In this document: positions 6,261 through 24,127 of the stretch, piece by piece
Layout: every line of letters begins with the position of its first letter
How positions within the stretch are numbered: the first letter of the stretch is position 1
IMG/VR virus record: IMGVR_UViG_2703718829_000007
Location: 1 to 24,127 of that record
From: a virus
Lineage: Duplodnaviria; Heunggongvirae; Uroviricota; Caudoviricetes
Strand: one strand, 5' to 3'
DNA: 24,127 nucleotides
The notes under the pieces: model-generated
What the model saw: only the letters and a program-made list of their open reading frames with translations
Databases searched by the model: none
Told to the model about the DNA's origin: nothing
Program-made: the position numbers and the translations under genes

Positions 6261-6274
6261 TCAGGAGAAATACG

Positions 6275-7480: not shown

Positions 7481-7487
7481 TCACTCA

Positions 7488-7515
7488 GGGGCGCGGAACC
7501 GCGCCCCCTGTTCTG
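7488..7515 (+). terminator. hairpin after the capsid gene (terminator/attenuator)
   Basis: GGGGCGCGG-AA-CCGCGCCCC is a perfect 9-bp GC stem, followed by CTGTTCTG. Confidence 0.5.
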
Positions 7516-7529
7516 ACGGGTGAAGAATC

Positions 7530-7730
7530 ATGATCCTGAAACAAGATCTGAAATGGTCACCGGACGGTATGCGTGTTGAGGTCATTCGGGCCGGTGAGTA
7601 TGACGACGGGGCACTTCCTGCCCGGGTGCAGGAGATTGCACTTCAGGCCGGGTTAGCAGAGCGCGGAATCAGTGCAAAAAGCAGTAAAGCGGCAAAAGAG
7701 AAAAAAGCCACGACCAGTAAAGAGGGCTGA
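7530..7730 (+). CDS. hypothetical small protein between capsid and connector genes
   Basis: 66-aa ORF that fits the gap in the operon; C-terminus is Lys/Ala/Ser-rich. No recognised domain. Confidence 0.4.
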   Translation: MILKQDLKWSPDGMRVEVIRAGEYDDGALPARVQEIALQAGLAERGISAKSSKAAKEKKATTSKEG

Positions 7731-7732
7731 GT

Positions 7733-8056
7733 ATGCTTCTGACAATGGAAGAGATTAAAGCCCAACTCCGGCTGGATGAGGATTTCGATGCTGATGACCG
7801 CCATCTGCAACTGCTGGCCTGTGCGGCACAAAAGCGGACGGAAACGTATCTGAACCGGAAGCTCTATGCACCGGATGAAACCATTCCGGACAGCGATCCG
7901 GACGGGCTGCACCTGCCGGATGATATTCGTCTGGGGATGCTGATGCTTATCAGCCATTTTTACGAAAACCGCTCGTCGGTTACGGAAGTGGAGAAACTCG
8001 ACATGCCGCAGAGTTTTGGCTGGCTTGTCGGCCCGTACAGGTACTTTCCGCAATGA
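7733..8056 (+). CDS. head-tail connector protein (gp6-like)
   Basis: 107 aa, N-terminus MLLTMEEIKAQLRLDEDFDADD, typical of gp6-like head-tail connector proteins; position after the capsid gene. Confidence 0.78.
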   Translation: MLLTMEEIKAQLRLDEDFDADDRHLQLLACAAQKRTETYLNRKLYAPDETIPDSDPDGLHLPDDIRLGMLMLISHFYENRSSVTEVEKLDMPQSFGWLVGPYRYFPQ

Positions 8057-8463
8057 AAATTCGTCAGGCGCAGACCAGCGCAACCTACATTCTGCCGGAC
8101 CCCGGCGAACTGAATAAACGCGTCCTGATCCGCCAGCGGGTGGATATGCCCGCGGATAACTTTGGCGTGGAGCCTCAATACCCGGTTGCGTTCCGGGCAT
8201 GGGCGAAGGTTATCCAGACCAGTGCCACCACCTGGCAGGAAACCGCGCAGACCGGAGATGCCATCACCCATTACATCACCATTCGCTACCGCCGGGGGAT
8301 CACTGCTGATTATGAGGTGGTCTGTGATGACAGTGTGTACCGGGTGAAACGTCAGCGCGATCTGAACGGGGCGCGGCGCTTTCTGCTGCTGGAGTGTACG
8401 GAACTGGGCGAATTTACGCAGAGTCACGGAGGCAGCAATGGCGACTCCCTTTTTGCACGTTGA
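8053..8463 (+). CDS. head-tail adaptor / head closure protein
   Basis: 136 aa, translationally coupled to the upstream gene; size and position match head closure proteins of HK97-like heads. Confidence 0.7.
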   Translation: MKIRQAQTSATYILPDPGELNKRVLIRQRVDMPADNFGVEPQYPVAFRAWAKVIQTSATTWQETAQTGDAITHYITIRYRRGITADYEVVCDDSVYRVKRQRDLNGARRFLLLECTELGEFTQSHGGSNGDSLFAR

Positions 8464-8944
8464 TGTTCAGCAGCCCGCGGAGATGCGCTTTAACCGCGCC
8501 CGTGTCCGGCGGGCGTTTGTCACGATTGGGCAGCGTCATATGCGTGATGCCCGTCGGCTGGTGATGCGCCGTGCGCGGTCGGCACCGGGTGAAAACCCCG
8601 GTTATCAGACCGGACGCCTGGCTCGTTCGATTGGCTACATGGTGCCGAGAGCCAGTAAAAAGCGAGCCGGTTTTATGACACGCATTGCCCCTAACCAGCG
8701 CAACGGGAAGGGGAACCGGATGATCTCTGGTGACTTTTATCCGGCGTTTCTGTTTTTTGGTGTCCGGGGAGGAGCAAAACGTCGTTGTAGTCATCATCGT
8801 GGTGCATCCGGTGGCAGCGGCTGGCGGCTGGCTCCACGTAATAACTTTATGGTGGAAACGCTTGAAAAGAACCGCAGCTGGACACGCTATTTTCTGGCGC
8901 GGGAATTACGTAAATCACTGAAGCCGGAGCGACGACACAGATGA
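8438..8944 (+). CDS. HK97 gp10-like neck/tail-joining protein
   Basis: 168 aa, basic, with a ...GYQTGRLARSIGY... region resembling HK97 gp10-family proteins. Confidence 0.7.
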   Translation: MATPFLHVDVQQPAEMRFNRARVRRAFVTIGQRHMRDARRLVMRRARSAPGENPGYQTGRLARSIGYMVPRASKKRAGFMTRIAPNQRNGKGNRMISGDFYPAFLFFGVRGGAKRRCSHHRGASGGSGWRLAPRNNFMVETLEKNRSWTRYFLARELRKSLKPERRHR

Positions 8945-9501
8945 AACTGACGCCTGTTATTGCTGCGCTGCGTGCCCGCTGCCCGTATTTTGAAAACCGG
9001 GTGGCAGGCGCGGCACAGTTCAAAAATCTGCCGGAGGTCGGAAAGCTGAGACTCCCGGCGGCGTATGTGGTACCGGGTGATGACTCTCCGGGAGAAAACA
9101 AAAGCCAGACCGACTACTGGCAGGAGCTGAAAGAGGGCTTCTCCGTGGTTGTCATACTGAGTAACGGGTGTGATGAGCGCGGTCAGTTTGCCTCGTATGA
9201 TGTGGTGGACGATGTCCGGCAGATGCTCTTTAAGGCCCTGCTGGGCTGGAACCCGGAAGCGTGCGGTAACCCGATTACCTATGACGGCGGCACGCTGCTG
9301 GATCTGAATCGTCATGAGCTGATTTATCAGTTCGATTTTTCGGCCATCAGCGAGCTGACCGAAGACGATACCCGCCAGCAGGATGAGCTGAACAGTCTGG
9401 ATGAACTGCGAACGCTGGCGATTGATGTTGATTATCTCGATCCCGGTAACGGCCCTGACGGCGATATCGAACATCACACCGAAATAACCCTTCCTTCCTG
9501 A
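8941..9501 (+). CDS. tail completion / neck protein (Mu gp37-like)
   Basis: 186 aa immediately upstream of the sheath gene; acidic C-terminus. Placement matches Mu-like tail modules. Confidence 0.55.
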   Translation: MKLTPVIAALRARCPYFENRVAGAAQFKNLPEVGKLRLPAAYVVPGDDSPGENKSQTDYWQELKEGFSVVVILSNGCDERGQFASYDVVDDVRQMLFKALLGWNPEACGNPITYDGGTLLDLNRHELIYQFDFSAISELTEDDTRQQDELNSLDELRTLAIDVDYLDPGNGPDGDIEHHTEITLPS

Positions 9502-9509
9502 GAATCTTC

Positions 9510-9680
9510 ATGTTTGTGAAACCTGTTAAAGGGCGGTCAGTGCCTGACCCTGCCCGCGGTGACCTTTTGCCCACCGAAGGGCGAAATGTTGACGAGAACA
9601 ACTACTGGCTGCGCCGTGAAGCAGCGGGTGATATCCGGCGCGTGAATAAAAAGGTGAACACCGATGACGATAAGCTTTAA
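9510..9680 (+). CDS. small conserved tail-module protein (DUF2635-like)
   Basis: 56-aa ORF not in the track because it is under 60 aa (MFVKPVKGRSVPDPARGDLLPTEGRNVDENNYWLRREAAGDIRRVNKKVNTDDDKL). Its 3' end overlaps the sheath start; a protein of this type commonly precedes Mu-like sheath genes. Confidence 0.5.
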   Translation: MFVKPVKGRSVPDPARGDLLPTEGRNVDENNYWLRREAAGDIRRVNKKVNTDDDKL

Positions 9681-11160
9681 CACCATTCCGTCGAATACGC
9701 TGGTTCCGCTGTTTTATGCGGAAATGGATAACCAGGCTGCGAATACTGCACAGGACAGCGGAGCATCGCTGCTGATTGGTCATGCCAATAACGGTGCAGA
9801 GATTGTTGCCAACAGTCTGGTGCTGATGCCGTCGGCAGACTATGCACGCCAGATTTGTGGTGCGGGAAGTCAGCTGGCGCGTATGGTCGAGGCTTATCGC
9901 CAGACCGACCCGTTTGGTGAGCTGTATGTGATTGCCGTTCCGGAAGCCACAGGCGCGGCGGCAACGGTTACGCTGACGGTGACCGGGGAAGCAACCGAAA
10001 GCGGCACGGTGAATGTCTATGTGGGACGTACCCGCGTGCAGGCACCGGTGACCAACGGCGATAACGTTGCGACGATTGCCAGCAGTATCCAGGATGCCAT
10101 CAATGCCGTTCCGGCCCTGCCGTTTACTGCCTCATCTTCGGCAGGCGTGGTCACACTGACCGCGCGTCATAAGGGGCTTTGCGGGAATGAAATTCCTGTC
10201 AGCCTCAATTACTACGGCTTTGGTGGGGGCGAAGTGCTGCCAGCGGGCGTACAGATTGCCGTGGCGACGGGTACCGCCGGAACGGGCGCTCCTGTTCTCA
10301 CCGGCGCGGTGGCTGCAATGGCGGATGAGCCGTTTGATTATATCGGCCTGCCGTTCAACGACACGGCCTCCGTTAACACGCTGGTGACCGAGATGAACGA
10401 TACCAGCGGTCGCTGGAGCTATGCGCGTCAGCTGTATGGTCATGTGTATACGGCAAAGATCGGCACGCTGTCAGAACTGGTGACCGCAGGTGACCAGTTT
10501 AACCAGCAGCACATTACCCTGGCGGGATACGAAAAAGAGACCCAGACGCCTGCCGACGAGCTGGCGGCAAGCCGTACCGCCCGCGCAGCGGTGTTTATCC
10601 GCAACGATCCGGCACGTCCCACGCAGACCGGTGAGCTGGTGGGTATGCTGCCTGCGCCGAAGGGGAAACGGTTCACGATGACCGAACAACAGACCCTGCT
10701 GGCTCATGGCGTGGCAACGGCGTATGTCGAAAGCGGGGTGCTGCGCATTCAGCGTGATGTCACCACGTACAGGAAAAACGCTTACGGTGTTGCGGATAAC
10801 AGCTACCTCGACAGCGAGACGCTGCATACCAGCGCGTATGTGCTGCGCAAACTGAAATCCGTCATTACCAGTAAGTACGGGCGTCACAAGCTTGCCAGCG
10901 ACGGTACCCGCTTTGGTCCCGGTCAGGCGATTGTCACACCGGCGGTGATCAAAGGGGAACTGCTGGCAACCTACCGTCAGCTTGAGCGTGCGGGGATCGT
11001 GGAAAACTACGAACTGTTTAAGCAGTACCTGGTTGTGGAGCGTGATGCCAGCGATCCGAACCGCCTGAACACGCTGTTCCCGCCTGACTATGTTAACCAG
11101 TTGCGTGTCTTTGCCGTGGTTAACCAGTTCCGTCTTCAGTATTCAGAGGAGTCTGCATAA
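9664..11160 (+). CDS. contractile tail sheath protein
   Basis: 498 aa, followed directly by a tube gene, chaperone pair and tape measure; sequence character fits Mu L-type sheath proteins. Confidence 0.9.
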   Translation: MTISFNTIPSNTLVPLFYAEMDNQAANTAQDSGASLLIGHANNGAEIVANSLVLMPSADYARQICGAGSQLARMVEAYRQTDPFGELYVIAVPEATGAAATVTLTVTGEATESGTVNVYVGRTRVQAPVTNGDNVATIASSIQDAINAVPALPFTASSSAGVVTLTARHKGLCGNEIPVSLNYYGFGGGEVLPAGVQIAVATGTAGTGAPVLTGAVAAMADEPFDYIGLPFNDTASVNTLVTEMNDTSGRWSYARQLYGHVYTAKIGTLSELVTAGDQFNQQHITLAGYEKETQTPADELAASRTARAAVFIRNDPARPTQTGELVGMLPAPKGKRFTMTEQQTLLAHGVATAYVESGVLRIQRDVTTYRKNAYGVADNSYLDSETLHTSAYVLRKLKSVITSKYGRHKLASDGTRFGPGQAIVTPAVIKGELLATYRQLERAGIVENYELFKQYLVVERDASDPNRLNTLFPPDYVNQLRVFAVVNQFRLQYSEESA

Positions 11161-11516
11161 TGGCCCGTATCGGGGGAACCTGTTATTTCAAAATTGACGG
11201 TCAACAGCTATCGCTGACCGGCGGCATTGAGGTGCCCATGAACAGGACGGTCAATGATGACATCATCGGCCTGGACGGTTCAGTGGACCGCAAGGAAACT
11301 CACCGTGCGCCTTATGTCAAAGGGACTTTCAAGGTGCCGAAGAATTTTCCGGTGAACAAAATCACCTCGTCTGATGAGATGACTATCACTGCCGAGCTGG
11401 CGAACGGTCAGGTCTATGTACTGTCGTCTGCCTGGCTGCACGGCGAAGCGAACCATAATGCCGAAGAAGGCACGGTTGATCTTGAGTTCCACGGTGAAGA
11501 AGGGGATTACCAGTAA
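11160..11516 (+). CDS. tail tube protein
   Basis: 118 aa, ATG overlaps the sheath stop (TAATG), strong AGGAG SD; size and position match a tail tube. Confidence 0.85.
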   Translation: MARIGGTCYFKIDGQQLSLTGGIEVPMNRTVNDDIIGLDGSVDRKETHRAPYVKGTFKVPKNFPVNKITSSDEMTITAELANGQVYVLSSAWLHGEANHNAEEGTVDLEFHGEEGDYQ

Positions 11517-11785
11517 TGAAAGAGCTTGAGTTAAAGAAACCGATTACTGCTCATGGCGAGACACTCTCCGTACTGGAGTTTGATGAGCCCACCGGGAAGG
11601 ATGTCCGCGAGCTGGGGTATCCCTACCAGATGAATCAGGATGAGTCAGTCAAACTTCTGGCGCATGTGGTGTCGAAATACATTGTGCGGCTGGCGAAAGT
11701 GCCGCAAAGCTCTGTCGACCAGATGTCTCCGGCAGACCTGAATGCAGCGGCGTGGCTTGTGGCTGGTTTTTTCCTCCAGGCCTGA
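11516..11785 (+). CDS. tail assembly chaperone (G-type)
   Basis: 89-aa ORF between tube and tape measure, ending just past a TTTTTTC slippery site. Confidence 0.75.
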   Translation: MKELELKKPITAHGETLSVLEFDEPTGKDVRELGYPYQMNQDESVKLLAHVVSKYIVRLAKVPQSSVDQMSPADLNAAAWLVAGFFLQA

Positions 11786-11934
11786 CGGCTGAATACCTCA
11801 CTGATCGCTTCTTTGACTGCGCCAGCTACTGGCGCATTAATCCTTTCGAATTGCTGAATATGCCGATCAGTGAAATTCCCTTACTGGTCAGTCAGGCAAA
11901 CAGGATAGAGCAGGAGAAACGCACACATGGCTGA
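11516..11934 (+). CDS. tail assembly chaperone, -1 frameshift fusion product (GT-type)
   Basis: The -1 frame ORF (11752..11934) overlaps the 3' end of the chaperone gene. A shift at T_TTT_TTC (11767-11773) would fuse it to give a longer product ending 8 bp after the tape-measure start. Confidence 0.55.
11767..11773 (+). promoter_or_regulatory. programmed -1 ribosomal frameshift slippery heptamer (TTTTTTC)
   Basis: The X_XXY_YYZ heptamer T_TTT_TTC sits in the zero frame of the chaperone ORF (codons GGT TTT TTC), 12 nt before its stop, with the -1 frame open downstream. Confidence 0.55.
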
Positions 11935-13759
11935 ATTTGAGCTTAAGGCGTTGATCACCGGTGTCGACAGGCTTTCTCCCGCGCTGTCGAAAATGCAAAA
12001 GAAAATCCGGGGATTTAAACGCCAGGCGGAAGAAGCGTCACAGGGTGGGCTGGCGCTTGGGGGCGGACTGGCAGCGGGTCTGACGCTTTCCCTGAAATCT
12101 TATGCCGATCAGGAAAACGCCGCCACCGGGCTGAAAGTCGCCATGATGGATGCGAACGGCGAGGTTGGAAAGAGCTTTCAGGACATCAATAAACTGGCTA
12201 TTGGCCTGGGTAACCAGCTACCCGGTACAACGGCTGATTTCCAGAACATGATGCAGATGCTGGTGCGTCAGGGGATCCCGGCAGAAAACATTCTGGGTGG
12301 TGTGGGTAAAGCGACAGCTTATCTTGCGGTACAACTGAAAAAAACACCGGAAGCGGCTGCCGAGTTTGCTGCAAAGATGCAGGATGCTACCGGAACGGCG
12401 TCAGAAGACATGATGGGGCTGTTCGACACTATCCAGAAGGCGTTTTATCTGGGCGTTGACGATACCAACATGTTGTCCTTCTTCACTAAAACCAGTTCTG
12501 TTCTGAAGATGGTGAACAAGGACGGTCTTCAGGCTGCACAGAGCCTTGCCCCCATCAGCGTCATGATGGATCAGATGGGGATGAACGGGGAGTCGGCAGG
12601 TAATGCCCTGCGAAAAGTTATCCAGTCCGGATTAAGTGTTAAGAAAATCAGGGACGTCAATAAAGTCATGGCCCGCCAGAAACTCGGGGTACAGCTCGAT
12701 TTTACTGACGGCAAAGGAAGTTTTGGCGGTCTTGATAACATGTTCAGGCAACTGGCAAAGTTGCGAAAACTGACCGACGTTAAGCGAACCGGTGTACTTA
12801 AGGCAATATTTGGTGATGATGCCGAAACCCTTCAGGTGGTCAATGCCCTGATCGATAAAGGAAAGGATGGCTACGATCAGATCCAGCAGAAGATGAATAA
12901 ACAGGCCAGCCTGAATAAACGTGTTCAGGCTCAGCTTGGTACGCTGTCCAACCTGTGGGAGGCAATGACGGGGACCGCAACTAACGGTCTTGCAGCTATT
13001 GGCGGCGCATTTTCTGGTGACGCTAAAAATATCACGCAATGGCTGGGGGAGTTGGGGGAAAAATTCACGAAGTTTGCGGATGAAAATCCCCGGGTTATTC
13101 GCGGCGTCGTCGGGCTTGCTGCCGGTCTTGCGATTCTGAAACTGGGATTGATGGGCGTTGGCGGTGCCATCAGTATTGTCAGCAGGATCATGTCGATGAC
13201 GCCGATTGGCATGATTGCGACGGCGATAGCCCTGGCTGCGGGATTAATTATCACTAACTGGGATGTTGTCGGACCTTATTTTAAGAAACTCTGGGAAACC
13301 ATTGGTCCTTATTTTGAGACTGGCTGGGAACTTCTTAAGAAGGTTTTTGCCTGGTCGCCGCTGGGGATGGTGATCAATAACTGGGGACCGGTTGTTAAGT
13401 GGTTTCAGGATATGTGGGACAAGCTGAAGCCAATTATTGAGTGGTTTACCGACAGTTCCGGTGACACGGTCGATGCCATTAACTCTGCGCAGTGGGGCGC
13501 GGGTGCTTATGATGCTTATGGGACGGGAATACCGGCGCGGGGATACACACCTTATCCGGCGGTGGATCCGGCTCAGGCAAACAACGCCTCCGGTGCCACA
13601 GGCCCGAATCCCTTCATGATTAATAAAGCTACCGCGCCAAAAGTTGATGGTGAGATCAAGGTATCATTTATAAATATGCCATCAGGTATGCGGGTTACGG
13701 AAACACGCTCCAGTGGCATTGATATAAATCACGATGTTGGCTATACCCGATTTTGGTAG
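11927..13759 (+). CDS. tail tape measure protein
   Basis: 610 aa, alpha-helical and Ala/Gly/Leu-rich, with a hydrophobic segment (VIRGVVGLAAGLAILKLGLMGVGGAISIV...); lies after the chaperone pair. Confidence 0.9.
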   Translation: MAEFELKALITGVDRLSPALSKMQKKIRGFKRQAEEASQGGLALGGGLAAGLTLSLKSYADQENAATGLKVAMMDANGEVGKSFQDINKLAIGLGNQLPGTTADFQNMMQMLVRQGIPAENILGGVGKATAYLAVQLKKTPEAAAEFAAKMQDATGTASEDMMGLFDTIQKAFYLGVDDTNMLSFFTKTSSVLKMVNKDGLQAAQSLAPISVMMDQMGMNGESAGNALRKVIQSGLSVKKIRDVNKVMARQKLGVQLDFTDGKGSFGGLDNMFRQLAKLRKLTDVKRTGVLKAIFGDDAETLQVVNALIDKGKDGYDQIQQKMNKQASLNKRVQAQLGTLSNLWEAMTGTATNGLAAIGGAFSGDAKNITQWLGELGEKFTKFADENPRVIRGVVGLAAGLAILKLGLMGVGGAISIVSRIMSMTPIGMIATAIALAAGLIITNWDVVGPYFKKLWETIGPYFETGWELLKKVFAWSPLGMVINNWGPVVKWFQDMWDKLKPIIEWFTDSSGDTVDAINSAQWGAGAYDAYGTGIPARGYTPYPAVDPAQANNASGATGPNPFMINKATAPKVDGEIKVSFINMPSGMRVTETRSSGIDINHDVGYTRFW

Positions 13760-13787
13760 CCAGGATTCCCCTCACAGGTATTGCTGG

Positions 13788-13815
13788 TTGTAAGTCATAA
13801 ATAGAGTGATAGAAT
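13788..13815 (+). promoter_or_regulatory. candidate sigma70 promoter for the AT-rich tail-module gene
   Basis: TTGTAA (13788-13793), 16-bp spacer, TAGAAT (13810-13815), about 35 bp upstream of ATG 13851. Read by eye, weak. Confidence 0.3.
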
Positions 13816-13850
13816 TAATGCACATTTAGAAAAATGTTAATAGGCGAAAA

Positions 13851-14381
13851 ATGAAAGGCTATATCACAGCAAGTGTAATTCTTGGAGCGGCGGCTATTTT
13901 TTCATCTCTCATAATCTCTGGCAACATCTCCTTTAAAGATGAACATATTATTCAGTTATCTGGAGGAGCCATAAAACTTGGTGATGTTTATAAAGAAAAT
14001 AAATTGATAAGTGCAAAGATTATTTTTCCAGATAATCAGGGTGAACAGATTCTTGTTGTCGACGGCAATCCTGAAAACTTTAAGGAGGATTTTCAGGAGA
14101 AATTAAATAAAGTAATAAAAACTTTAAATGCGTCAAAGAAAAAAGATGAAGAGAAAGTTAGCCTGGATAATTTAAGTGTTGTTGAAGAGTCTAAACTAGA
14201 GCTCGTTTCTGCGGTGCGTTACTCTGCTCAGTATGTTCCTATGTTTACTCTGACGCTGGACAAAAAAGAAATTACCATGCCTAAAAATACGGTAATATTT
14301 CCATTTGCCAGCGATGAAACAGCTAAGTATTTAAATGAACAACAGCAAAAGTATAAAGATTCGTTGTTTCTGACTCGCTAA
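13851..14381 (+). CDS. hypothetical exported or membrane-anchored protein (insertion in the tail module)
   Basis: 176 aa, visibly AT-rich and Lys/Asn/Ile-rich, unlike the flanking genes. N-terminal hydrophobic segment (ITASVILGAAAIFSSLIISG) with no lipobox Cys. Flanked by a promoter-like sequence upstream and a hairpin terminator downstream. Confidence 0.6.
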   Translation: MKGYITASVILGAAAIFSSLIISGNISFKDEHIIQLSGGAIKLGDVYKENKLISAKIIFPDNQGEQILVVDGNPENFKEDFQEKLNKVIKTLNASKKKDEEKVSLDNLSVVEESKLELVSAVRYSAQYVPMFTLTLDKKEITMPKNTVIFPFASDETAKYLNEQQQKYKDSLFLTR

Positions 14382-14398
14382 TTAATAAAATTCATTAC

Positions 14399-14432
14399 AA
14401 GGCCACCTTCTAATAGGTGGCTTTTTAATTTT
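14399..14432 (+). terminator. Rho-independent terminator after the AT-rich tail-module gene
   Basis: GCCACCT (14402-14408), loop TCTAAT, AGGTGGC (14415-14421), then TTTTTAATTTT. Confidence 0.6.
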
Positions 14433-14442
14433 CGGAGTATAT

Positions 14443-15771
14443 ATGACGTGGAAAGACAGGCTTCAGGATGCGTCATTTCGAGGTGTGCCGTTTAAGGTTG
14501 AAGAAGAAACTGCGGGAACTGGCCGTCGTGTGGAAACGCACGAATACCCGAACCGCGACAAACCCTATACCGAAGACCTGGGGAAAATCACTTTCCGCCC
14601 GTCCATCACGGCTTATGTGGTGGGAGATGACTGCTTTGACCAGCGCGATCGCCTGATTGACGCGCTGAATAAACCCGGTCCCGGCACGCTTGTCCATCCG
14701 ACTTACGGTGAGCTGAAAGTCTGTGTTGACGGAGAATTTCGGGTCAGCACATCGAAGAGTGAAGGGCGTATTGTCCGCTTTGACCTGAAGTTTGTCGAAG
14801 CGGGAGAACTCTCTTACCCCACATCAGGTGCGGCGACGGCGCAGACGCTGATGTCATCCTGTTCTGCACTGGATGACTGCATCAGTGACAGTTTCAGTAG
14901 TTTCAGTATCGATGGCGTGGCAGATTTTGTGCAGAACGATGTCGTCGGTAATGCCAGCACAATGCTTGGGTATGTTTCTGATGCGATGAAAGTGGTGGAT
15001 TCTGCCGTATCGGATGCCGCCAGGCTGTTGCAGGGGGATATCTCGGTACTTCTGCCGCCGCCATCGTCAGGCAAAAATTTCGTTGAGCAGGTGCAGAAAA
15101 TGTGGCGTACCGGGAAACGCCTTTATGGTAACGCCAGCGACCTGGTCACCATGATCAAAACGCTTTCCGGTGTCAGCCTCGGCAGCGATCTGCAACCGCG
15201 CGGCGTCTGGAAAACGGACAGTAAAACCACCGCCACGGCGACGCAGCAGCGTAACGTGGTTGCCAGCACCCTTCGTATGACCGCAATCAGCGAAGCGGCG
15301 TATGCCGTTACCCGATTGCCTGCGCCAACAACTTCTGCGGTGATGCAGAATGCCGCAGTGGGGCAGTCAACAACACCCGCGCAGAGCTCCGGCTGGCCTG
15401 CCGTCACGCATCCGGTGCTGAACAATGCACCGGCGGTGAAAAACACGGTTGACCTGCCAACGTGGGAAGAACTGACCGACATTCGCGACACACTGAATAT
15501 GGCAATTGATAAGGAGTTGTCCCGTACAACCAGTGATGCGCTGTTTCTGGCGCTGCGCCGGGTGAAAGCAGATCTGAATGCGGATATCAACACGCGCCTT
15601 GAACAGTCTGCTCGGATCATTCAGCGCACGCCGGATGAGGTTTTACCCGCGCTGGTGCTGGCGGCGACCTGGTTTGATAACGCGGCGCGTGACGCGGACA
15701 TTATCCGGCGTAATGCCATTACGCATCCCGGCTTTGTGCCGGTGATCCCTCTGAAGGTGCCAGTGCAATGA
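14443..15771 (+). CDS. DNA circularization protein (Mu N-like)
   Basis: 442 aa; N-terminus MTWKDRLQDASFRGVPFKVEEETAGTGRRVETHEYPNRDKPYTEDLG is characteristic of Mu N-type DNA circulation proteins; lies after the tape measure. Confidence 0.8.
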   Translation: MTWKDRLQDASFRGVPFKVEEETAGTGRRVETHEYPNRDKPYTEDLGKITFRPSITAYVVGDDCFDQRDRLIDALNKPGPGTLVHPTYGELKVCVDGEFRVSTSKSEGRIVRFDLKFVEAGELSYPTSGAATAQTLMSSCSALDDCISDSFSSFSIDGVADFVQNDVVGNASTMLGYVSDAMKVVDSAVSDAARLLQGDISVLLPPPSSGKNFVEQVQKMWRTGKRLYGNASDLVTMIKTLSGVSLGSDLQPRGVWKTDSKTTATATQQRNVVASTLRMTAISEAAYAVTRLPAPTTSAVMQNAAVGQSTTPAQSSGWPAVTHPVLNNAPAVKNTVDLPTWEELTDIRDTLNMAIDKELSRTTSDALFLALRRVKADLNADINTRLEQSARIIQRTPDEVLPALVLAATWFDNAARDADIIRRNAITHPGFVPVIPLKVPVQ

Positions 15772-16847
15772 ACGACAATGTCACGCTACGGGTAAATGGC
15801 CGGGAGTGGAATGGCTGGACATCGGTGCGCATCGGTGCCGGTATTGAACGGCTGGCGCGGGATTTCAGCGTGGAGATCACCCGCCAGTGGCCGGGAGATG
15901 AGGGTATCACCACGCTTCAGCCGCGCATTAAAAATGGTTCAAAAGTGGAAGTGCTGATTGGTGATGAGCTGGTGATCACCGGCTGGGTGGAGGCGACCCC
16001 CGTTCGTTACGATGCCCGTTCGGTCAGCACCGGTATTGCCGGACGTAGTCTGACTGCTGACCTGATTGACTGTGCAGCCGAACCGACACAGTTTAACGGA
16101 CGATCGCTGGTACAGATTGCGCAGGCGCTTGCTGCGCCTTTCGGCATTGAGGTGGTGAACAACGGTGCGCAGTCGGGTGTTATTCCTGACGTCCAGCCCG
16201 ATCACGGTGAAACGGTGATTGAGGTAATCAACAAAATACTCGGTCAGCGGCAGGCACTGGCTTACGACGACCCGCACGGCAGGCTGGTGATTGGTGGTAT
16301 TGGCTCAACGCGGGCACATACTGCGCTGGTACTCGGGGAAAACATCCTTTCCTGCGATACGGAGAAGAGTATCCGGGAGCGGTTTTCAGTTTACCAGGTG
16401 GCGGGGCAGCGTGCCGGAAACGACGATGATTTCGGTGAGGCCACCACCACCGCGCTGCGGGCCCGCACAGAGGACGCATTTATTGCCCGTTACCGTCCGA
16501 TGTATATCAGGCAGACAGGGCAGGCTACGGGGGCAGGCTGTATTGCCCGTGCGGACTTTGAAGCCCGACAACGGGCGGCGCGGACGGATGAAACCACCTA
16601 TGTGGTGCAGGGCTGGCGACAGGGTAACGGTACGCTGTGGCAGCCCAACCAGCGGGTGATTGTCTTTGATCCGGTCTGTGGTTTCGACAATACCGAACTG
16701 CTTGTTTCGGAAGTCACGTTTACTCAGGACCAGAACGGCACCCTGACGGAAATCCGTGTCGGCCCGCCTGATGCTTATCTGCCTGAACCCGAAGCCCCCG
16801 GCGCGCGGAAAAAGAAAAAAGCCAGAGTACAGGAGGACCCGTTCTGA
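15768..16847 (+). CDS. baseplate hub protein (Mu P / gpD-like)
   Basis: 359 aa, translationally coupled to the upstream gene; position and size match Mu gene P. Confidence 0.72.
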   Translation: MNDNVTLRVNGREWNGWTSVRIGAGIERLARDFSVEITRQWPGDEGITTLQPRIKNGSKVEVLIGDELVITGWVEATPVRYDARSVSTGIAGRSLTADLIDCAAEPTQFNGRSLVQIAQALAAPFGIEVVNNGAQSGVIPDVQPDHGETVIEVINKILGQRQALAYDDPHGRLVIGGIGSTRAHTALVLGENILSCDTEKSIRERFSVYQVAGQRAGNDDDFGEATTTALRARTEDAFIARYRPMYIRQTGQATGAGCIARADFEARQRAARTDETTYVVQGWRQGNGTLWQPNQRVIVFDPVCGFDNTELLVSEVTFTQDQNGTLTEIRVGPPDAYLPEPEAPGARKKKKARVQEDPF

Positions 16848-17395
16848 TGAGGACGATTGAAGCCATGCAGCGACAACTCCTCGGCCTGATTGGGCGGGCC
16901 GTGGTGAAAAGCATCAGTGCCGCCACGAAATGTCAGACCGTGGATGTGTTCCTGATTGCCGGTGAACCCAAAGCCGGGGTTGAACATCTTGAACCCTACG
17001 GTTTTACCGCAAGGGCAAACAGCGGTGCGGAAGCGGTGGTGTTGTTTCCGGATGGCGACCGTTCTCATGCGGTGGTTGTTACGGTGTCGGACCGTCGCTA
17101 CCGCCTGAAAGGGCTGCAGACGGGTGAGGTGGCTGTCTATGACGATCAGGGGCAGTCCGTGACGCTGACCCGGGAGGGGATCGTGGTGGACGGTGCAGGT
17201 AAAACGATCACGTTTCGCAATGCACCTGAAGCACGTTTTGAAATGGACCTGGAAGTGACAGGACAGGTGAAAGACCTGTGCGACTCCGGCGGCACCACCA
17301 TGTCAGCGATGCGGCTTGCCTATAACGGGCATAGTCACAGAGAGAACGGTCAGGGCAGTAACACCGACAAACCGGATAAAGCGATGGAGGCATGA
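16847..17395 (+). CDS. baseplate spike / assembly protein V-like
   Basis: 182 aa, coupled (ATGA overlap); C-terminal region with an HSH motif; position matches the gpV-like spike of Mu-like baseplates. Confidence 0.75.
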   Translation: MRTIEAMQRQLLGLIGRAVVKSISAATKCQTVDVFLIAGEPKAGVEHLEPYGFTARANSGAEAVVLFPDGDRSHAVVVTVSDRRYRLKGLQTGEVAVYDDQGQSVTLTREGIVVDGAGKTITFRNAPEARFEMDLEVTGQVKDLCDSGGTTMSAMRLAYNGHSHRENGQGSNTDKPDKAMEA

Positions 17396-17820
17396 TGGAA
17401 CTGTGGCTGACGGTGAACGGTAAACGCACCTGCGCCAGCGCACCGCTGGATCCGCTGACCCGCGCCGTGGTGATTTCCCTGTTTACCTGGCGGCGGGCGG
17501 AGCCTGATGACAACGCCGACGTCCCGATGGGATGGTGGGGGGATACCTGGCCTGCGGTACAGAATGACCGTTACGGCTCCCGACTGTGGCTGCTTCAGCG
17601 CAGCAAACTGACCAATCAGCTGGTGCAGACGGTAAGGGGGTATATCCGCGAATGCCTGCAATGGATGATTGATGATGGCGTGGTGTCCCGTATTGATCTG
17701 GATATCCGCCGCACCGGGATTAATGAACTGGGTAACAGTATCACTCTCTGGCGTCGTGACGGACCGGTAATGATTTCTTTTGATGATCTGTGGAGTGCGA
17801 TAACGCATGGCGGACAGTGA
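17392..17820 (+). CDS. baseplate wedge protein (Mu gp46 / GPW-gp25-like)
   Basis: 142 aa between the spike and the J-like protein; coupled start. Confidence 0.65.
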   Translation: MMELWLTVNGKRTCASAPLDPLTRAVVISLFTWRRAEPDDNADVPMGWWGDTWPAVQNDRYGSRLWLLQRSKLTNQLVQTVRGYIRECLQWMIDDGVVSRIDLDIRRTGINELGNSITLWRRDGPVMISFDDLWSAITHGGQ

Positions 17821-18865
17821 ATTTCAGCGCCCGACGCTGGCAGAAAATATCAGTATGCTCCGTAACGATTTATTCGCCAGGCTGGACGTCAGCGACACGC
17901 TCCGGCGCATGGATGAAGACGTGCGGGCAAAGGTGTATGCGGCGGCGCTGCATACGGTTTACGGGTACATCGATTATCTGGCAATGAACATGCTGCCTGA
18001 CCTGTGCGATGAGTCCTGGCTGGCGCGACATGCTGCGATGAAACGGTGTCCGCGCAAGGGGGCCACGGCTGCCAGCGGGTATATGCGCTGGGAAGGTGTC
18101 AGCGATGGCCTGAAGGTGACCGCCGGGAGTGTTATTCAGCGCGATGACCTGGTTCAGTACACGGCAACTGCTGATGCAACCAGCTCCGGTGGTGTCCTGC
18201 GCGTGCCGATCACCTGCTCAACTACAGGCGTGGTCGGTAACGCTGACGACGGTACGGCATTAATCCTGGTCACGCCGGTGAATGGTCTGCCGTCTTCCGG
18301 CGTGGCAGATACACTGACAGGTGGATTTGATACTGAAGAGCTGGAAACGTGGCGCGCCCGCGTCATTGAGCGGTATTACTGGACGCCTCAGGGCGGGGCT
18401 GACGGGGACTATGTCGTCTGGGCTAAAGAAGTACCCGGCATTACCCGCGCATGGACATACCGACACTGGATGGGAACGGGGACTGTCGGTGTGATGATTG
18501 CCAGCAGTGACCTGATTAATCCCATTCCGGAAGAGTCAACGGAAACGGCGGCAAGACAACATATCGGGCCACTGGCCCCGGTGGCAGGCTCTGATTTGTA
18601 TGTATTCAGGCCGGTGGCGCATAAAGTGGATTTTCATATCCGCGTGACGCCGGACACACCGGAAATACGGGCTGCCATCACCGCCGAGTTGCGTTCGTTC
18701 CTGCTGCGTGATGGTTATCCGCAGGGAGAACTGAAGGTGTCACGTATCAGTGAAGCGATTTCCGGTACGAACGGGGAATACAGCCATCAGTTGCTTGCCC
18801 CGGCGGACAATATCTCCATTGCAAAAAATGAGCTGGCGGTTCTGGGGACGATTTCATGGACGTGA
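17807..18865 (+). CDS. baseplate J-like protein
   Basis: 352 aa; position and size match Mu gp47 / Baseplate_J family. Confidence 0.8.
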
Positions 18866-19440
18866 CAAACGATGATTATATCCGTCTGTTGTCGGCACTG
18901 TTGCCGCCCGGTCCGGCGTGGTCAGTCAGCGATCCGGCGATTGCCGGTGCGGCACCGTCATTAACCCGCGTTCATCAGCGTGCGGATGCCCTGATGCGGG
19001 AGCTGGATCCGCGCACCACCACTGAACTGATAAACCGCTGGGAGCGTCTGTGCGGTCTGCCGGATGAATGTATTCCCGCAGGGACACAGACCCTTCGCCA
19101 GCGTCAGCAACGGCTGGATGCGAAGGTTAATCTGGCGGGCGGCATCAATGAGGATTTTTATCTTGCACAGCTTGCTGCCCTGGGCAGACCAGACGCCACT
19201 ATCACGCGATACGATAAAAGCACGTTCACCTGCTCATCGGCCTGTACTGACGCAGTGAATGCGCCGGAATGGCGGTATTACTGGCAGGTCAACATGCCAG
19301 CCGCCACCAACACCACCTGGATGACATGTGGCGATCCCTGTGATTCCGCACTGCGTATCTGGGGCGACACCGTTGTCGAGTGCGTGCTTAACAAACTCTG
19401 CCCTTCGCATACCTACGTAATTTTTAAATATCCGGAGTAA
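18856..19440 (+). CDS. tail protein, DUF2313-like (Mu gp48 / YmfQ-like)
   Basis: 194 aa, Cys-rich C-terminus, between the J-like protein and the tail fibre. Confidence 0.7.
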
Positions 19441-19443
19441 TCC

Positions 19444-20490
19444 ATGCATCGTATAGACACGAAAACCGCGCAGAAGGATAAGTTCGGCGCGGGTAAGAAC
19501 GGTTTTACCCGTGGTAACCCCCAGACCGGCACACCTGCCACCGATCTGGATGATGACTACTTTGACATGTTGCAGGAAGAACTTTGTAGCGTTGTTGAGG
19601 CATCCGGTGCCAGTCTGGAGAAGGCGCGGCACGACCAGCTGCTTACCGCACTTCGTGCGCTGCTGTTAAGCCGCAAGAATCCGTTTGGCGATATCAAATC
19701 GGATGGCACTGTGCAAACGGCTCTCGAAAACCTTCAATTGCGAGAATCATTCACAGGTGTGGTTGGTCAGGCCGTTAACCAGAAAATGAGCGTGGCAATA
19801 GCGTCGGCATCAGCAACATTCACCGCTGACCAGGTTATTGTTGGTGAGTCATTATCTGGCAAGCAGTACCGTGTAAGTTCGGTAAGCGAAACTATCAACC
19901 TCACCACGACTGGGGCGGGCGGGATGGATACAGGAGCAGCCCCTGCCAGTGGTTGGGTTGCTATTTACCTTATTTACAACCCAACGACCAACACCTCAGC
20001 ATTACTTGGTGTTAACACGACAACCGTCGTTGCGCCCACAGTCTACGGCGGTGCAAACATGCCAGCGGGATATACGGCGAGCGCACTCGTATCCGTCTGG
20101 AGAACAACAAGCGGCTCTTTGCTTCTGAATGGGTACCAGCGAGGTCGAAAATTTTGCATCCCGCGTGTAGATGTACTGACCACAAGCAGTAACCCAGGAC
20201 CATACTCACCAATCCCTCTTAGCGCAGCCGTACCGCTAAACGCTATAGCAGCGAGTGGTTACGCATTCTGTAACTCAGGCTCTGGTTCTGGGTTTGCGGT
20301 TTTGTCTGTCGGGTCTGATGCAAATGGGCTTGGGTATTTTCAGGTGTATGCCGGGCTGGTTGGTTCGCTAGGGAGCGATATCTATTTTGAGAATACCCTC
20401 GCTGAACCTCAAAAACTTTACTACACGTTTACCTGGACAACGCCAGCAGTGTCAAATGCCACCATTGGGATAAGCGGTTATACGATCTAA
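19444..20490 (+). CDS. tail fibre protein
   Basis: 348 aa; conserved N-terminal domain ([47 protein letters not shown]...) followed by a Ser/Thr/Gly-rich variable C-terminal part typical of receptor-binding fibres. Confidence 0.8.
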
Positions 20491-20500
20491 GGAGTGAATT

Positions 20501-20668
20501 ATGTCTGTTGTATATGTGCAGTTCTCTGATGAGAAAGAAACAGAAATTGTCTCTGTTTTTGCATCTCCGGCCGACCCGGATTACTACCAGTTTTTGGGGG
20601 AGGTAGAGGGGGATGATGAGCGGCTTAAAATCTTTTGGAAGCAATTCCCTCAGCATGCCGTAGGTTGA
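20501..20668 (+). CDS. hypothetical small acidic protein downstream of the tail fibre
   Basis: 55-aa ORF not in the track (under 60 aa), with a perfect AAGGAG SD 6 nt upstream of the ATG. Acidic (DEKETE, EVEGDDE). Could be a remnant or adaptor. Confidence 0.35.
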   Translation: MSVVYVQFSDEKETEIVSVFASPADPDYYQFLGEVEGDDERLKIFWKQFPQHAVG

Positions 20669-20848
20669 TTGGATAATAAGTCGCTAGGTGAGAACTGGCG
20701 GATAATTTTTCTAGATAAGTTTTTAGCAACCAGCATTCCTGTTTTTTATATCCAGGATTTTGGTTTACAGTACTTATTTTTAACTGTATTGAGGATGGCG
20801 AAAACAGATTGAAAATTACATCCAGATCACCCAATCGATAATCAACCA

Positions 20849-20882
20849 TTATAAAAAAGGCTCCCTTTTTAGGGAGCCTTGT
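20849..20882 (-). terminator. Rho-independent terminator of the acyltransferase gene (also a possible bidirectional stop for the late operon)
   Basis: Perfect 10-bp stem AAGGCTCCCT / AGGGAGCCTT (20857-20880) with a 4-nt loop, followed on the minus strand by TTTTTTAT, a few bp after the acyltransferase stop. Confidence 0.55.
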
Positions 20883-20886
20883 GTGG

Positions 20887-22092
20887 TTATATTTTTGCTT
20901 TACTGATAAAATTATCTAGGGTTTTTCCTACGGTACGGCTAAGTATCACTGATTTTTTCTCTATTAATTGATAAAATATCATTGAACCAATTAAAGAAAG
21001 AGTGACGAATACTAAAAAGGAAGCAATGTATGCTAAATAAACGTTATTTGTATGAATATATACATATAGGTTTATTGGCATTATTGCAGATGAAAGAACT
21101 AACCAGTGAACAAGGTATAAAGAGAAAGAAATTTTCCCAAAAAATTGAACAAGTTTAGTGGATAGGAAATCGCGAATGTATCCTCTGGACATTACTAGAA
21201 TTAGCAATAATATTGCACCGACACCACGTAAAAACTCGTATGGGTGGTAAGGGAACATCCCAGGAATCGATAAGTCTTGCATGTTTATTAATGGGGCAAC
21301 AAAATAGTTCCCTGGTATAAAAATCCAACCCCAGGGATAGAATACCGGGCAACTTTGAAGTATCACTATAGCTAATATCATTAGCAAAGTAATAACGTAT
21401 TTTTCTTTGTTGTTAAATAAATTGCTTGTTTTTTCGTCGGCAAACAAGATGGATATCCATGCGCCAATGAGAAGAAAAAACACATAATATCCGTAACTAA
21501 AGATAGTAAATAAAAATAATAAAAGAATGCCATGCCTTGAATTATTTCTTCCTACCTGAGCAACAATTAATAGTAACAGCGAGCCCATAAACTCAGTCGA
21601 CATTGACCATATTACAGGGTTAAGAAATCTAGTTGAAAAATCTGTGGTATATAGCGTAAGAATGCCTTGCTTTATTACTTCATCGAAAGCTACATTTTCA
21701 TCGTGATCATAACGAAATCCAGATTTTACTAAGATATATCCAATAATACAGGAAGCAAATACAGGAACACCAAGTCGAATAAAACGACGTATTAATGATG
21801 CTATAAATGTTGTATTTGCTTTGAAGGCGCCAAGAAGAATTGCGCCAGATAAGATGAAAAAAACTATAGTAGCAAAATTACCATTGATAGTGAATACGAA
21901 TGGTGTCGTTTCAGTAAATTCGTAGAATTTTGAAAGCCAATAAGGGAATGCATCTGGGTAGTGTGAAAGCATAAAAAGCTTTGTTTCACCAAAAAAATGA
22001 CCATAAGCAACAATTATAGCCATTAGTCCGCGTAACCCATCAAAATATAGGATTCTGTTCTTTTTTTGTTCCAATTTATTGAACCTCATCAT
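20887..22092 (-). CDS. acyltransferase family 3 integral membrane protein (probable O-antigen / polysaccharide O-acetyltransferase, lysogenic conversion)
   Basis: About 400 aa, very hydrophobic with many predicted TM helices. N-terminal signature ...ILYFDGLRGLMAIIVAYGHFF... matches the conserved Arg/His region of AT3 acyltransferases (Oac/OafA-type). Visibly AT-rich. Start is uncertain: the track uses a TTG at 22137; the ATG pair at 22087-22092 fits family N-termini better. Confidence 0.8.
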   Translation of the reverse strand: MMRFNKLEQKKNRILYFDGLRGLMAIIVAYGHFFGETKLFMLSHYPDAFPYWLSKFYEFTETTPFVFTINGNFATIVFFILSGAILLGAFKANTTFIASLIRRFIRLGVPVFASCIIGYILVKSGFRYDHDENVAFDEVIKQGILTLYTTDFSTRFLNPVIWSMSTEFMGSLLLLIVAQVGRNNSRHGILLLFLFTIFSYGYYVFFLLIGAWISILFADEKTSNLFNNKEKYVITLLMILAIVILQSCPVFYPWGWIFIPGNYFVAPLINMQDLSIPGMFPYHPYEFLRGVGAILLLILVMSRGYIRDFLSTKLVQFFGKISFSLYLVHWLVLSSAIMPINLYVYIHTNNVYLAYIASFLVFVTLSLIGSMIFYQLIEKKSVILSRTVGKTLDNFISKAKI

Positions 22093-23096
22093 TTCAAAAT
22101 AGTGAGCAATGATAGTGTTAAGAGTGTAGTAAAGCAATGCCTTCTGGAATCGAAGTTAAAACAACGGAGCTTAAATTAGTTGAAGTGAGATTTGCTAATA
22201 AAGGTAATAAATTCAATCAATTACTTCTTGAGGGCGTATTGGTGTTAAGAAGATTTTAACATTGTATCACATACCACGGGGGCATTCTGATGAAATCAGA
22301 AAAATAGACAGGGTAATAGCTATCGATTGATGATGGTGGTTGCTATGCTTCATATAGAGTTTCCGATACTATCACGCACATTATTAATGATAGCAGAACG
22401 GTGGAGTTTAATGGTTGGCCAAGCCTTGTTGAACAATGGTTAATCATGCTGTTTTAATATACCTTCTTTGGAGAAAAATGCTAACAACTCCAACGTGCAT
22501 TGCCCGAGATTGGCTGTAACCATAATAATTTTATGGAGTTTATTGAATAAACCCGAGTTAGTAGACAGGATGACGCCTACCGGAACACCCGTTATGCGAT
22601 GCGGACGCTGTCCGGCATACCCAGCACGGTCATCCGGTTTAGCGCTTTGACCATCGCCGTTTCTGCCACTGAACGACGGTGATAACCCACTTTCTTTTTC
22701 CAAACATAATTGCTGGATAGGGTCAGGGTTATTATGATGCTTGGAATTATCGAACGCTGCCGCAGAATGTTAGAGAACGGAGCAATCCGGCAACGTGATC
22801 GGTGTGGGGGTAAAGACGATTTATAAATACTTTCCTGTCACAAGTCCAGCGCGTAATGCCAGTTCCCGAGTGTAGGTATGATCATGAAAAAGTGGTGCGC
22901 ACCTAAATATCTTTAATACAGGCGTAGGATGCCATGCATTAGGATCGGGTTAAACAGGGATGTTTACGTTCTGGAAAACTGCCCGCAGATAGCCGGCGTG
23001 ATCTAGAATGATTTTTGTGTACATATATGTGTACTGTACAAAAGAAGATTTGGCTTTTAATTTCAATAAAAACAATAAATTGAATTGTTTTTAAAA

Positions 23097-23119
23097 TATA
23101 TCCATTTAACTAAGAGGAC
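23097..23119 (-). pseudogene. 5' fragment of a tRNA-Arg(CCU)-like gene (argW-like), apparently truncated
   Basis: Minus-strand sequence GTCCTCTTAGTTAAATGGATATA matches the first 23 nt (acceptor stem, D-arm) of enterobacterial tRNA-Arg(CCU) as recalled from memory. What follows is AT-rich and cannot form anticodon or T arms. Lies about 75 bp downstream of the YfdC-like gene. Confidence 0.35.
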
Positions 23120-23194: not shown

Positions 23195-24127
23195 TTATGC
23201 CGGGTTTTTATAATTTTTCTTAATGTTTTCCGCACGTTCTGCTTTTTGGCGTGCTTCTGCTTTACGCTTATTGCTCATGTCGTTACGAATCTGTGCATGA
23301 CTCATTAACGCGAAGATAAAGGTGCCGCCGCAGATGTTCCCCGCTAAAGTAGGTAGTGCGAAGGGCCAGATGAAATCGCTCCAGTGCAGCGTACCGTTAA
23401 ACACCAGATAGAGGATTTCAACAGAACCGACCACGATATGGGTGGTGTCACCCAGGGCAATAAGCCAGGTCATCAATATAATCACCACAATCTTTGCCGC
23501 ACCCGCTGCAGGAAACATCCAAACCATAGTGGCGATCAGCCAGCCGGAAATGATCGCGTTGGCAAACATCTCGCTGGGGGTGTTCTTCATCACATCCATG
23601 CCGATTTTGACAAATGCATCGCGAGTTTCTTCATTGAAGATAGGCATATATTCAAATGCCCACGCCGCAATACCTGTCCCGAGAATATTACCCAGCAGCA
23701 CGACGCCCCATAACCGTATAAGTAAGCCGACGTTGCTCATTGTCGGTTTTTGCATGACGGGTAGTACCGCAGTCACGGTATTTTCGGTAAATAATTGCTG
23801 GCGGGCCATAATGACGATAATAAAACCAAAGGTATAACCGAGATTCTCCAGCAAGAAGCTGCCCGGCACACCTTCCAGTTCGACTTGAAATATCCCTTTT
23901 GCCAGTAACGAAGCGCCCATCGACAGACCCGCCGCAATGGCTGACCACAGTAGCGCCATTGCGTCGCGTTCCAGCTCTTTTTCACCATCCTGGCGGATAT
24001 GCTCATGAATTGCCATCGCCCGGGAGGGGAGTCGGTCTTCATCTATTTCTATTTTTTTGCCGCGCTCTTTTTCTTCGCTCTCAACTTCCATTTCGTCGCT
24101 GTGTTGATCAATTTTGTCGTTGTCCAT
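23195..24127 (-). CDS. yfdC: formate/nitrite transporter (FNT) family inner-membrane protein, YfdC-like (host gene)
   Basis: 310-aa ORF with a hydrophilic acidic N-terminus followed by multiple TM helices. The start codon is at the very end of the window. Codon usage is host-like. In E. coli-like genomes yfdC lies next to argW, a known prophage integration site. Confidence 0.75.
   Translation of the reverse strand: MDNDKIDQHSDEMEVESEEKERGKKIEIDEDRLPSRAMAIHEHIRQDGEKELERDAMALLWSAIAAGLSMGASLLAKGIFQVELEGVPGSFLLENLGYTFGFIIVIMARQQLFTENTVTAVLPVMQKPTMSNVGLLIRLWGVVLLGNILGTGIAAWAFEYMPIFNEETRDAFVKIGMDVMKNTPSEMFANAIISGWLIATMVWMFPAAGAAKIVVIILMTWLIALGDTTHIVVGSVEILYLVFNGTLHWSDFIWPFALPTLAGNICGGTFIFALMSHAQIRNDMSNKRKAEARQKAERAENIKKNYKNPA

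Follow-up and report, generated by a model that had tools for sequence, protein, structure and literature searches.

An AT3-only acyltransferase gene of an argW prophage appears to be derived from, and to complement, the gene cluster of an untyped Escherichia coli O-antigen

The window examined here is a stretch of 24,127 nucleotides (positions 1 to 24,127 of the IMG/VR virus record IMGVR_UViG_2703718829_000007, Caudoviricetes), and the gene under study is a reverse-strand gene towards its end that encodes a membrane acyltransferase of the acyltransferase-3 family, hereafter AT3. We consider it likely that AT3 is a serotype-converting O-antigen acyltransferase that acts on the rare O non-typeable (ONT) Wzm/Wzt O-antigen of the lysogen, and the gene appears to have come from an O-antigen cluster of the type that encodes this ABC-transporter-dependent, untyped Escherichia coli O-antigen and to complement that of the host. 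A first-pass annotation of the same sequence had suggested O-antigen conversion; that reading has now gained target-specific support, in that the nearest relatives of AT3 lie in an orthologous O-antigen locus, the host locus lacks the gene, and the gene co-occurs with the rare O-type.

Results

All four relatives that are 55–61% identical to AT3 over their full length (P0003–P0006) lie in one conserved Wzm/Wzt cluster, which encodes, in order, proteins of 262, 124 (HAD-like), 513 (kinase-like) and 234 residues, Wzm, Wzt, a GT2 glycosyltransferase, WavE, the AT3 relative, and the products of a ∼600-residue and a ∼346-residue gene. In Pantoea stewartii, this AT3-bearing cluster occupies the classical O-antigen locus, flanked by galF and gnd. 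The sole complete E. coli genome with the prophage AT3 gene, that of the enterotoxigenic E. coli (ETEC) strain 720632, carries between galF and gnd an orthologous cluster of nine genes in the same order (42–81% amino acid identity). No AT3 gene is present in this cluster, where only 115 bp separate WavE from the gene for the 595-residue protein. The in-silico serotype of 720632 is ONT:H21, sequence type (ST) 1564, that is, O non-typeable (PMC6446980). The base composition of the AT3 gene (GC content 0.332) is nearly that of the host cluster and of the Pantoea cluster (0.331 each), and the in-cluster AT3 relatives range from 0.31 to 0.36; the flanking galF and gnd genes are at 0.50–0.51 and the phage structural genes at ∼0.55, against which the gene is AT-rich, as had been noted from the sequence.

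The gene and the cluster co-occur. The O-antigen cluster is present in 2 of 5,426 complete E. coli genomes and AT3 in one, even by sensitive blastn, this one being among the two with the cluster. The other cluster genome, ES1, has a variant at 92–98% amino acid identity and no AT3. In the wider protein collections, the AT3 protein cluster has 82 members, of which all with a source name are labelled E. coli, and the exact proteins of the host O-antigen cluster are found on ∼190–290 contigs. Protein accessions are numbered consecutively within each NCBI submission, and close numbers were read as the same genome. Seven AT3 accessions from draft genomes fall within 77 to ∼3,200 of accessions of cluster proteins (e.g., EEV5578771/EEV5581797 and HDV1377317/HDV1377394), and we infer that each such pair comes from one draft genome. 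For one of these genomes, GCA_029706505.1, the assembly was confirmed to contain both an AT3 variant (P0071) and an ES1-like Wzm (P0086); its cluster is a second version, 7% divergent in DNA. Strain 710607 (PNSA01), also ONT:H21 ST1564, likewise carries AT3. The exact E. coli protein was not among the representatives in the search for Wzm homologues, and the co-occurrence rests on accession proximity and this one assembly.

Some further features of the host loci were recorded. In the 720632 cluster (L013 1904–13383), the genes for the HAD-like 124-residue, APH/kinase-like 513-residue and GT2-like 234-residue proteins precede wzm and wzt, and these three proteins could make up a module for chain termination or for adding a phospho substituent. 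Wzm relatives are found in Pantoea, Cronobacter, Leminorella and Salmonella; for Wzt, relatives occur in Kluyvera. In the colanic-acid region of 720632 (L012 39443–47590) and of three further loci that have this O-antigen cluster (L016, L019 and L020), wzc is in fragments, insertion sequence (IS) fragments are present and most wca genes are gone; in 720632, galF is interrupted by an internal stop, and in L016, L019 and L020 it is annotated in pieces. In the remaining colanic-acid-region loci that were examined (e.g., L021), no genes are called across the stretch.

The assignment to the AT3 family, for which the first-pass annotation had argued, is firm. The product matches Pfam PF01757 (Acyl_transf_3) with an E value of 3.5e-21 and 76.1 bits against a gathering cut-off of 31, and the match spans residues 30–389 of the 416-residue open reading frame (ORF) and profile positions 2–325 of 326. 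Because the AT3 domain fills this span, there is no room for a fused SGNH domain, and the Pfam search returned no match besides PF01757; the protein is thus, as proposed, an AT3-only enzyme of about 400 residues. A PHROGs search assigns it to phrog_3333, ‘O-acetyltransferase’ (E 9e-20), while an NCBIfam search matched no model or family and a PADLOC search no defence family. The family is sparse, with ∼7 clusters at >55% identity among 5.8 billion proteins and all relatives beyond those clusters at ≤30% identity.

Three motifs characterize AT3 enzymes according to a review (PMC9558356): the first transmembrane helix carries R/K-X10-H and the first cytoplasmic loop RXXR, and the third motif is V-x-x-F-F-x-[IVL]-S-G-[FWY]. 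Oac, OacB, OafA and Lag-1 cannot function without them (PMC9558356, PMC8952252). All three can be located in AT3 (residue numbers refer to the 395-residue form). The conserved N-terminal Arg/His pair seen in the first pass is R15-X10-H26, equivalent to Arg47 and His58 of OacB, which along with Phe98, Arg116 and Arg119 were found to be essential in that enzyme by mutagenesis (PMC8952252); among 31 sequences, the His is invariant and the Arg nearly so. The RXXR motif is R97-F-I-R100, with both Arg residues invariant in the same 31 sequences. The core of the third motif, F72-F73-I-L-S76-G77, is present and F72-F73-x-x-S76-G77 is invariant, but its flanks depart from the consensus, with Thr rather than Val at position −3 and Ala rather than Phe, Trp or Tyr after the Gly. 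An AlphaFold2 model of AT3 is all-helical (pLDDT 84.6, pTM 0.85) and predicts a polytopic membrane protein with the fold of transmembrane acyltransferases. A Foldseek search did not detect HGSNAT or GWT1, the solved transmembrane acyl-CoA:glycan acyltransferases, which are eukaryotic, are 10–12% identical to AT3 and use other acceptors.

The limits of the gene required one correction. The ORF at 20887–22137 exists exactly as first annotated, with a TTG start and 416 residues, but 22137 is only the most upstream possible start and this is the longest possible ORF rather than the gene. RefSeq places the start at the ATG at 22092, giving 401 residues. An alternative TTG at 22074, with GAGG 9 nt on its 5′ side, would give 395 residues, and a copy of the gene in a P2-like prophage (P0002, 90% identical) has an ATG exactly at this position. 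On comparison with homologues, the TTG at 22074 is the better supported start. The ORF is unbroken in every copy found, and the dN/dS of 0.07 between the window AT3 and the P2-like copy, at a dS of 0.71, indicates that the protein is under strong purifying selection. The features at this end of the window are as follows.

19444..20490, plus strand: tail-fibre gene; N-terminal ∼97 residues (to 19734) SfII-like, C-terminal tip (19722–20490) exchanged
20501..20668, plus strand: 55-residue ORF, PHROG 20339 (function unknown in PHROGs), which always follows this fibre tip
20850..20880, minus strand: strong intrinsic terminator of AT3 (20880–20857), immediately downstream of the stop codon; 10-bp stem containing 6 GC pairs, 4-nt loop, T run
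20887..22092, minus strand: AT3-only membrane acyltransferase gene; stop codon 20887–20889
22075..22308, minus strand: leader of the AT3 cassette and putative promoter region, its sequence also conserved in the P2-like copy
22592..22714, minus strand: remnant of an IS5/IS1182-family transposase gene (L001 22193–22315, offset +399)
23097..23119, minus strand: host-derived first 23 nt of argW (tRNA-Arg), at the prophage/host junction
23195..24127, minus strand: yfdC (formate/nitrite transporter family), a host gene outside the prophage

The window is ∼97% identical from 1860 to 19734 to the Shigella flexneri serotype-converting phages SfII, SfI, SfIV and SfV, and judged by this similarity the backbone is that of an SfII/SfV-type temperate myovirus integrated in argW. 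The similarity to SfII ends within the tail-fibre gene, after ∼97 codons, and almost exactly at this point similarity to the P2-like prophage begins: the two are 70% identical in DNA over the fibre tip and small ORF (19722–20657) and 84% over the terminator, AT3 and leader (20847–22308). In the P2-like prophage, the AT3 gene lies in the moron slot, on the opposite strand between the fibre gene with its 58-residue ORF and the sheath gene. Because the similarity spans fibre tip, small ORF and AT3, the three have been transferred as a group from one tail architecture to another, unrelated one. This module is also found next to dacD, a second integration site. The exchanged tip resembles fibres of BcepMu-like Burkholderia, Yersinia, Ralstonia and Pseudomonas phages in the phage database (41–58%), a similarity that is uninformative on the receptor, and the 55-residue ORF may encode a fibre chaperone. 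AT3 is convergent with the tail-fibre gene, with this ORF between them. The placement of AT3 on the opposite strand between tail fibre and host junction was right in the first-pass annotation, with two refinements: the 55-residue ORF separates it from the tail-fibre gene, and ∼960 bp of AT-rich DNA, including the IS5-family remnant, separate it from the junction.

The linkage to fibre tip and small ORF, tight as it is in two phage types, could be taken to mean that AT3 serves the lytic cycle or the virion, for example in assembly or release, rather than lysogenic conversion. We regard this as extremely improbable, since the gene runs against the late operon, has a terminator to itself and differs in GC content, as is typical of a moron, the product is predicted to be a polytopic inner-membrane enzyme, and AT3 is retained in prophages that are unable to make virions. 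In SRR15128260 (L014 7948–12470, next to yfdC), the prophage has been reduced to AT3, the 55-residue ORF and an integrase fragment, which suggests that the AT3 cassette is kept after phage decay.

This cassette (20847–22308), composed of leader, gene and terminator, is probably a self-contained AT-rich moron, with a putative promoter. An extended −10-like element, TGnTACAAT, was spotted by eye near 22260 in the leader and is likewise putative. No GATC occurs within ∼700 bp upstream of AT3, where signals of Dam/OxyR-type phase variation were sought, and an Rfam search of the conserved leader yielded sub-threshold matches only and no family. One of the Rfam matches, to ‘Phe_leader’, overlaps the terminator hairpin, is sub-threshold and was dismissed as chance. 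By eye, the last ∼125 nt of the leader (22075–22200, minus strand) appear better conserved between the SfII-type and P2-type copies than the 84% of the whole cassette. In three loci (L030–L032), similarity to the window stops at 22170 and an IS5-family element replaces the native upstream region; an intact transposase gene of this family lies immediately upstream of AT3 there (L030 2035–2958; L031 and L032 4904–5872).

At the distal end, an 18-bp att core, CTTAGTTAAATGGATATA, is located at 23097–23114, inside the 5′ argW fragment, and it also adjoins the integrase in the single complete genome that carries the element. Because the core recurs beside the integrase, AT3 is placed within the prophage, at the end opposite the integrase. 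Integration is in the 5′ (D-arm) part of argW, which is unusual compared with the common integration at the 3′ end, and the phage provides a new 5′ end for the tRNA gene. The reconstituted tRNA-Arg beside the integrase (L001 12196–12270) starts with GCCCCC and the displaced host fragment with GTCCTC, such that integration alters acceptor-stem positions 2 and 5 and swaps the region upstream of the tRNA. A chromosomal inversion at argW had been considered as an explanation for the intact tRNA at the integrase end and was rejected; the gene order is that of K-12 reversed, with 5′ D-arm integration.

A second, unrelated AT3 gene was noted in strain 710607 (GCA_003980485.1, L032 1711–3741). Its product has 380 residues and is 23% identical to AT3, and the gene lies ∼3 kb away, next to dacD, with its own 58-residue ORF and a remnant of the end of a fibre gene. 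Since it is found at this distance from the first, acyltransferase cassettes are stacked at one prophage end in this strain.

Discussion

Phage-borne AT3 O-antigen acetylases are known from Shigella (Oac, OacB, OacC and OacD) and Salmonella (OafB), and O-antigen-modifying temperate coliphages at argW, such as Kapi1, have been described. AT3 occupies the position of the phage serotype-converting acetylases, being carried by a temperate phage, proximal to att/int and beside the gene for the receptor-binding protein; the slot is that of oacD in SfII, oac in Sf6 and the acyltransferase gene in PA-1, and the backbone is of the SfII/SfV type, all of which agrees with the analogy drawn in the first-pass annotation. 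Its description as an Oac-like O-acetylase holds with respect to the AT3-only architecture, the motifs and the slot, but not in the sense of orthology to Oac (22% identity over 192 residues) or OacD (no similarity). By sequence, AT3 belongs to a separate lineage, yet one placed where Oac-type genes sit.

The comparison with SfII illustrates this. Its gene SfII_25 is oacD, which encodes the 6-O-acetylase of GlcNAc in the S. flexneri O-antigen (PMC8952252), and its layout runs from the fibre gene through the assembly protein, the opposite-strand AT3 gene with its terminator, and an IS element to gtrII/B/A and int. The two phages share a ∼97% identical backbone and the acyltransferase genes share slot, orientation, AT3-only architecture, a terminator of their own, an IS alongside and proximity to att/int. 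However, the proteins show no pairwise similarity (BLASTP E 0.22; subfamily hidden Markov model [HMM] not significant), our prophage is without gtrA/B/II, differs in its fibre tip and is integrated in argW, and its host O-antigen is of a different, ABC-transporter-dependent type. Orthology to SfII OacD, OpgC and WecH was considered and rejected, direct BLASTP comparisons being not significant.

Oac of Sf6 is the only characterized AT3 protein related beyond the Pfam level (subfamily HMM E 1.8e-8). It shares the R-X10-H, FFxISG and RXXR motifs and the AT3-only architecture; its gene, on the opposite strand, follows that of the tailspike (the receptor-binding protein) and is followed by int/attP, and Sf6 also uses argW. 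In contrast, Oac has 333 residues against ∼395, Sf6 is a podovirus with a tailspike, and Oac 2-O-acetylates rhamnose I of the Wzx/Wzy-type S. flexneri O-antigen. The nearest protein in the phage database is ORF081 of Pantoea phage PA-1 (26% identity at full length, 83 bits to the subfamily HMM), an uncharacterized acyltransferase whose gene lies between those for the tail spike and the integrase and whose sequence is distant from that of AT3. Closest in sequence are the in-cluster enzymes (P0006 of P. stewartii and P0003–P0005), which have similar GC content and belong to the orthologous cluster, conceptually like Salmonella WbaK. Unlike AT3, these are chromosomal, lie within the biosynthetic cluster and are not phage-borne, nor have they been characterized experimentally.

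In the mechanism we propose, an inner-membrane, AT3-only enzyme expressed from the prophage would draw on a cytoplasmic acyl-CoA donor, most likely acetyl-CoA. By analogy with the family, the acyl group would pass through the membrane bundle via the residues of the R-X10-H and RXXR motifs and be transferred to a sugar of the O-polysaccharide at the periplasmic face, probably on the undecaprenyl-linked polymer, after export by Wzm/Wzt and before ligation by WaaL. Because the host cluster is orthologous to the Pantoea-type cluster, in which a 55–61% identical AT3 is encoded in cis, the prophage would provide in trans the acylation step that is absent from the E. coli cluster, leading to serotype conversion. 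As AT3 travels with the fibre tip and small ORF, the modified glycan is probably also the receptor of the fibre, and acylation would probably make lysogens poorer targets for adsorption by this phage or its relatives. We infer the O-antigen as acceptor, the acetyl group, the periplasmic timing and the exclusion effect.

Taken one step further, the fibre tip, small ORF and AT3 may constitute one mobile unit of receptor recognition and receptor masking that has moved across SfII-type (at two sites) and P2-like chassis, with AT3 captured from a Pantoea-type O-antigen cluster, restoring in trans the acylation missing in E. coli, and then domesticated, and with an ABC-transporter-dependent O-polysaccharide as its target. 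We advance this scenario tentatively and rate its chances as somewhat short of even. To our knowledge, phage-borne O-acylation of ABC-transporter-dependent O-polysaccharides is little documented.

Several points weigh against the assignment of AT3 to the ONT O-antigen. AT3 is not orthologous to any characterized O-antigen acetylase; Sf6 Oac is the best match, with direct comparison among the Shigella phage enzymes covering Oac and OacD. A scan for sigma-70 promoters upstream of AT3 found fewer sites than in shuffled sequence, and owing to the IS5-family insertion in L030–L032 expression may vary between strains. The main weakness is the small number of independent associations between AT3 and the O-type, which amount to at least two cluster variants. 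The strains with the O-antigen cluster share a degraded colanic-acid region, which points to a clonal lineage without colanic acid, and because this region is shared, descent within a single clonal lineage or a few, and not functional dependence, could account for much of the co-occurrence. A look-up of other Wzm variants, made to establish the O-type of the hosts of the P2-like copy, gave no overlapping samples. Lastly, the acceptors of AT3 enzymes also include enterobacterial common antigen (ECA), osmoregulated periplasmic glucans (OPGs), capsules and peptidoglycan, and for some of the enzymes the group transferred is succinyl rather than acetyl (PMC9558356).

This breadth of acceptors raises the alternative that AT3 acylates another envelope glycan (ECA, OPGs, the lipopolysaccharide core, capsule or peptidoglycan) or transfers a non-acetyl group such as succinyl. 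E. coli itself offers AT3-only examples in WecH, which acts on ECA, and OpgC, which succinylates OPGs (PMC9558356), and AT3 has neither a close characterized relative nor an NCBIfam equivalog. We nonetheless think this alternative unlikely: neither WecH nor OpgC is picked up by the subfamily profile, every close chromosomal relative is inside an O-antigen-type Wzm/Wzt cluster orthologous to that of the host, and AT3 is confined to genomes with the rare cluster wherever this can be assessed. All E. coli have ECA, OPGs and peptidoglycan, which would therefore not explain the restriction of AT3 to a rare O-type.

If the association with the O-type were purely clonal, AT3 could also be unexpressed or decaying prophage cargo without effect. 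Strain 720632 has a degraded prophage and SRR15128260 has lost nearly all of it, IS remnants flank AT3, the promoter scan gave no excess of sites, and the strains of this O-type look clonally related. Set against these observations are the intact ORF in all copies, the dN/dS of 0.07 over 0.71 synonymous substitutions per site, the retention of all catalytic motifs, and a cassette that outlasts the surrounding phage genes and occurs in two phage backbones, at two or more integration sites and with two O-cluster variants 7% apart in DNA. An inert cargo gene is therefore quite improbable, and conversion of the ONT O-antigen remains the reading we favor.

Serotype conversion by phage AT3 enzymes is well known; less ordinary are the apparent derivation of AT3 from, and its apparent complementation of, an O-antigen cluster and its co-movement with a fibre tip across chassis. 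O-antigen conversion by AT3 predicts a specific case of serotype conversion in an ETEC lineage with a non-typeable O-antigen, for which the acceptor cluster can be named, with ES1 as a natural comparison strain that lacks AT3 and with in-cis counterparts that occur naturally in Pantoea. The joint movement of a receptor-binding tip and an enzyme that would modify the receptor bears on the prediction of phage host range, on schemes for typing O-antigens and on ETEC vaccines built on the O-antigen. In addition, the pair of in-cluster and phage-borne enzymes on orthologous polymers would suit the study of AT3-only enzymes, which are poorly understood mechanistically.

Other features of the window

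Elsewhere in the window, an AT-rich island (13851–14381, plus strand; GC content ∼0.36) with a 176-residue ORF of PHROG 5485 (unknown function), which has no Pfam or PADLOC match, is inserted between the tape-measure gene (11927–13759) and the DNA-circulation gene (14443–15771) and could represent another moron, here within the tail operon. Two reverse-strand ORFs of 208 residues (341–967) and 117 residues (1011–1364), assigned to PHROGs 12494 and 14397 (unknown function) and without Pfam or PADLOC matches, are also AT-rich (GC content 0.37–0.43) and are situated just upstream of the terminase genes.

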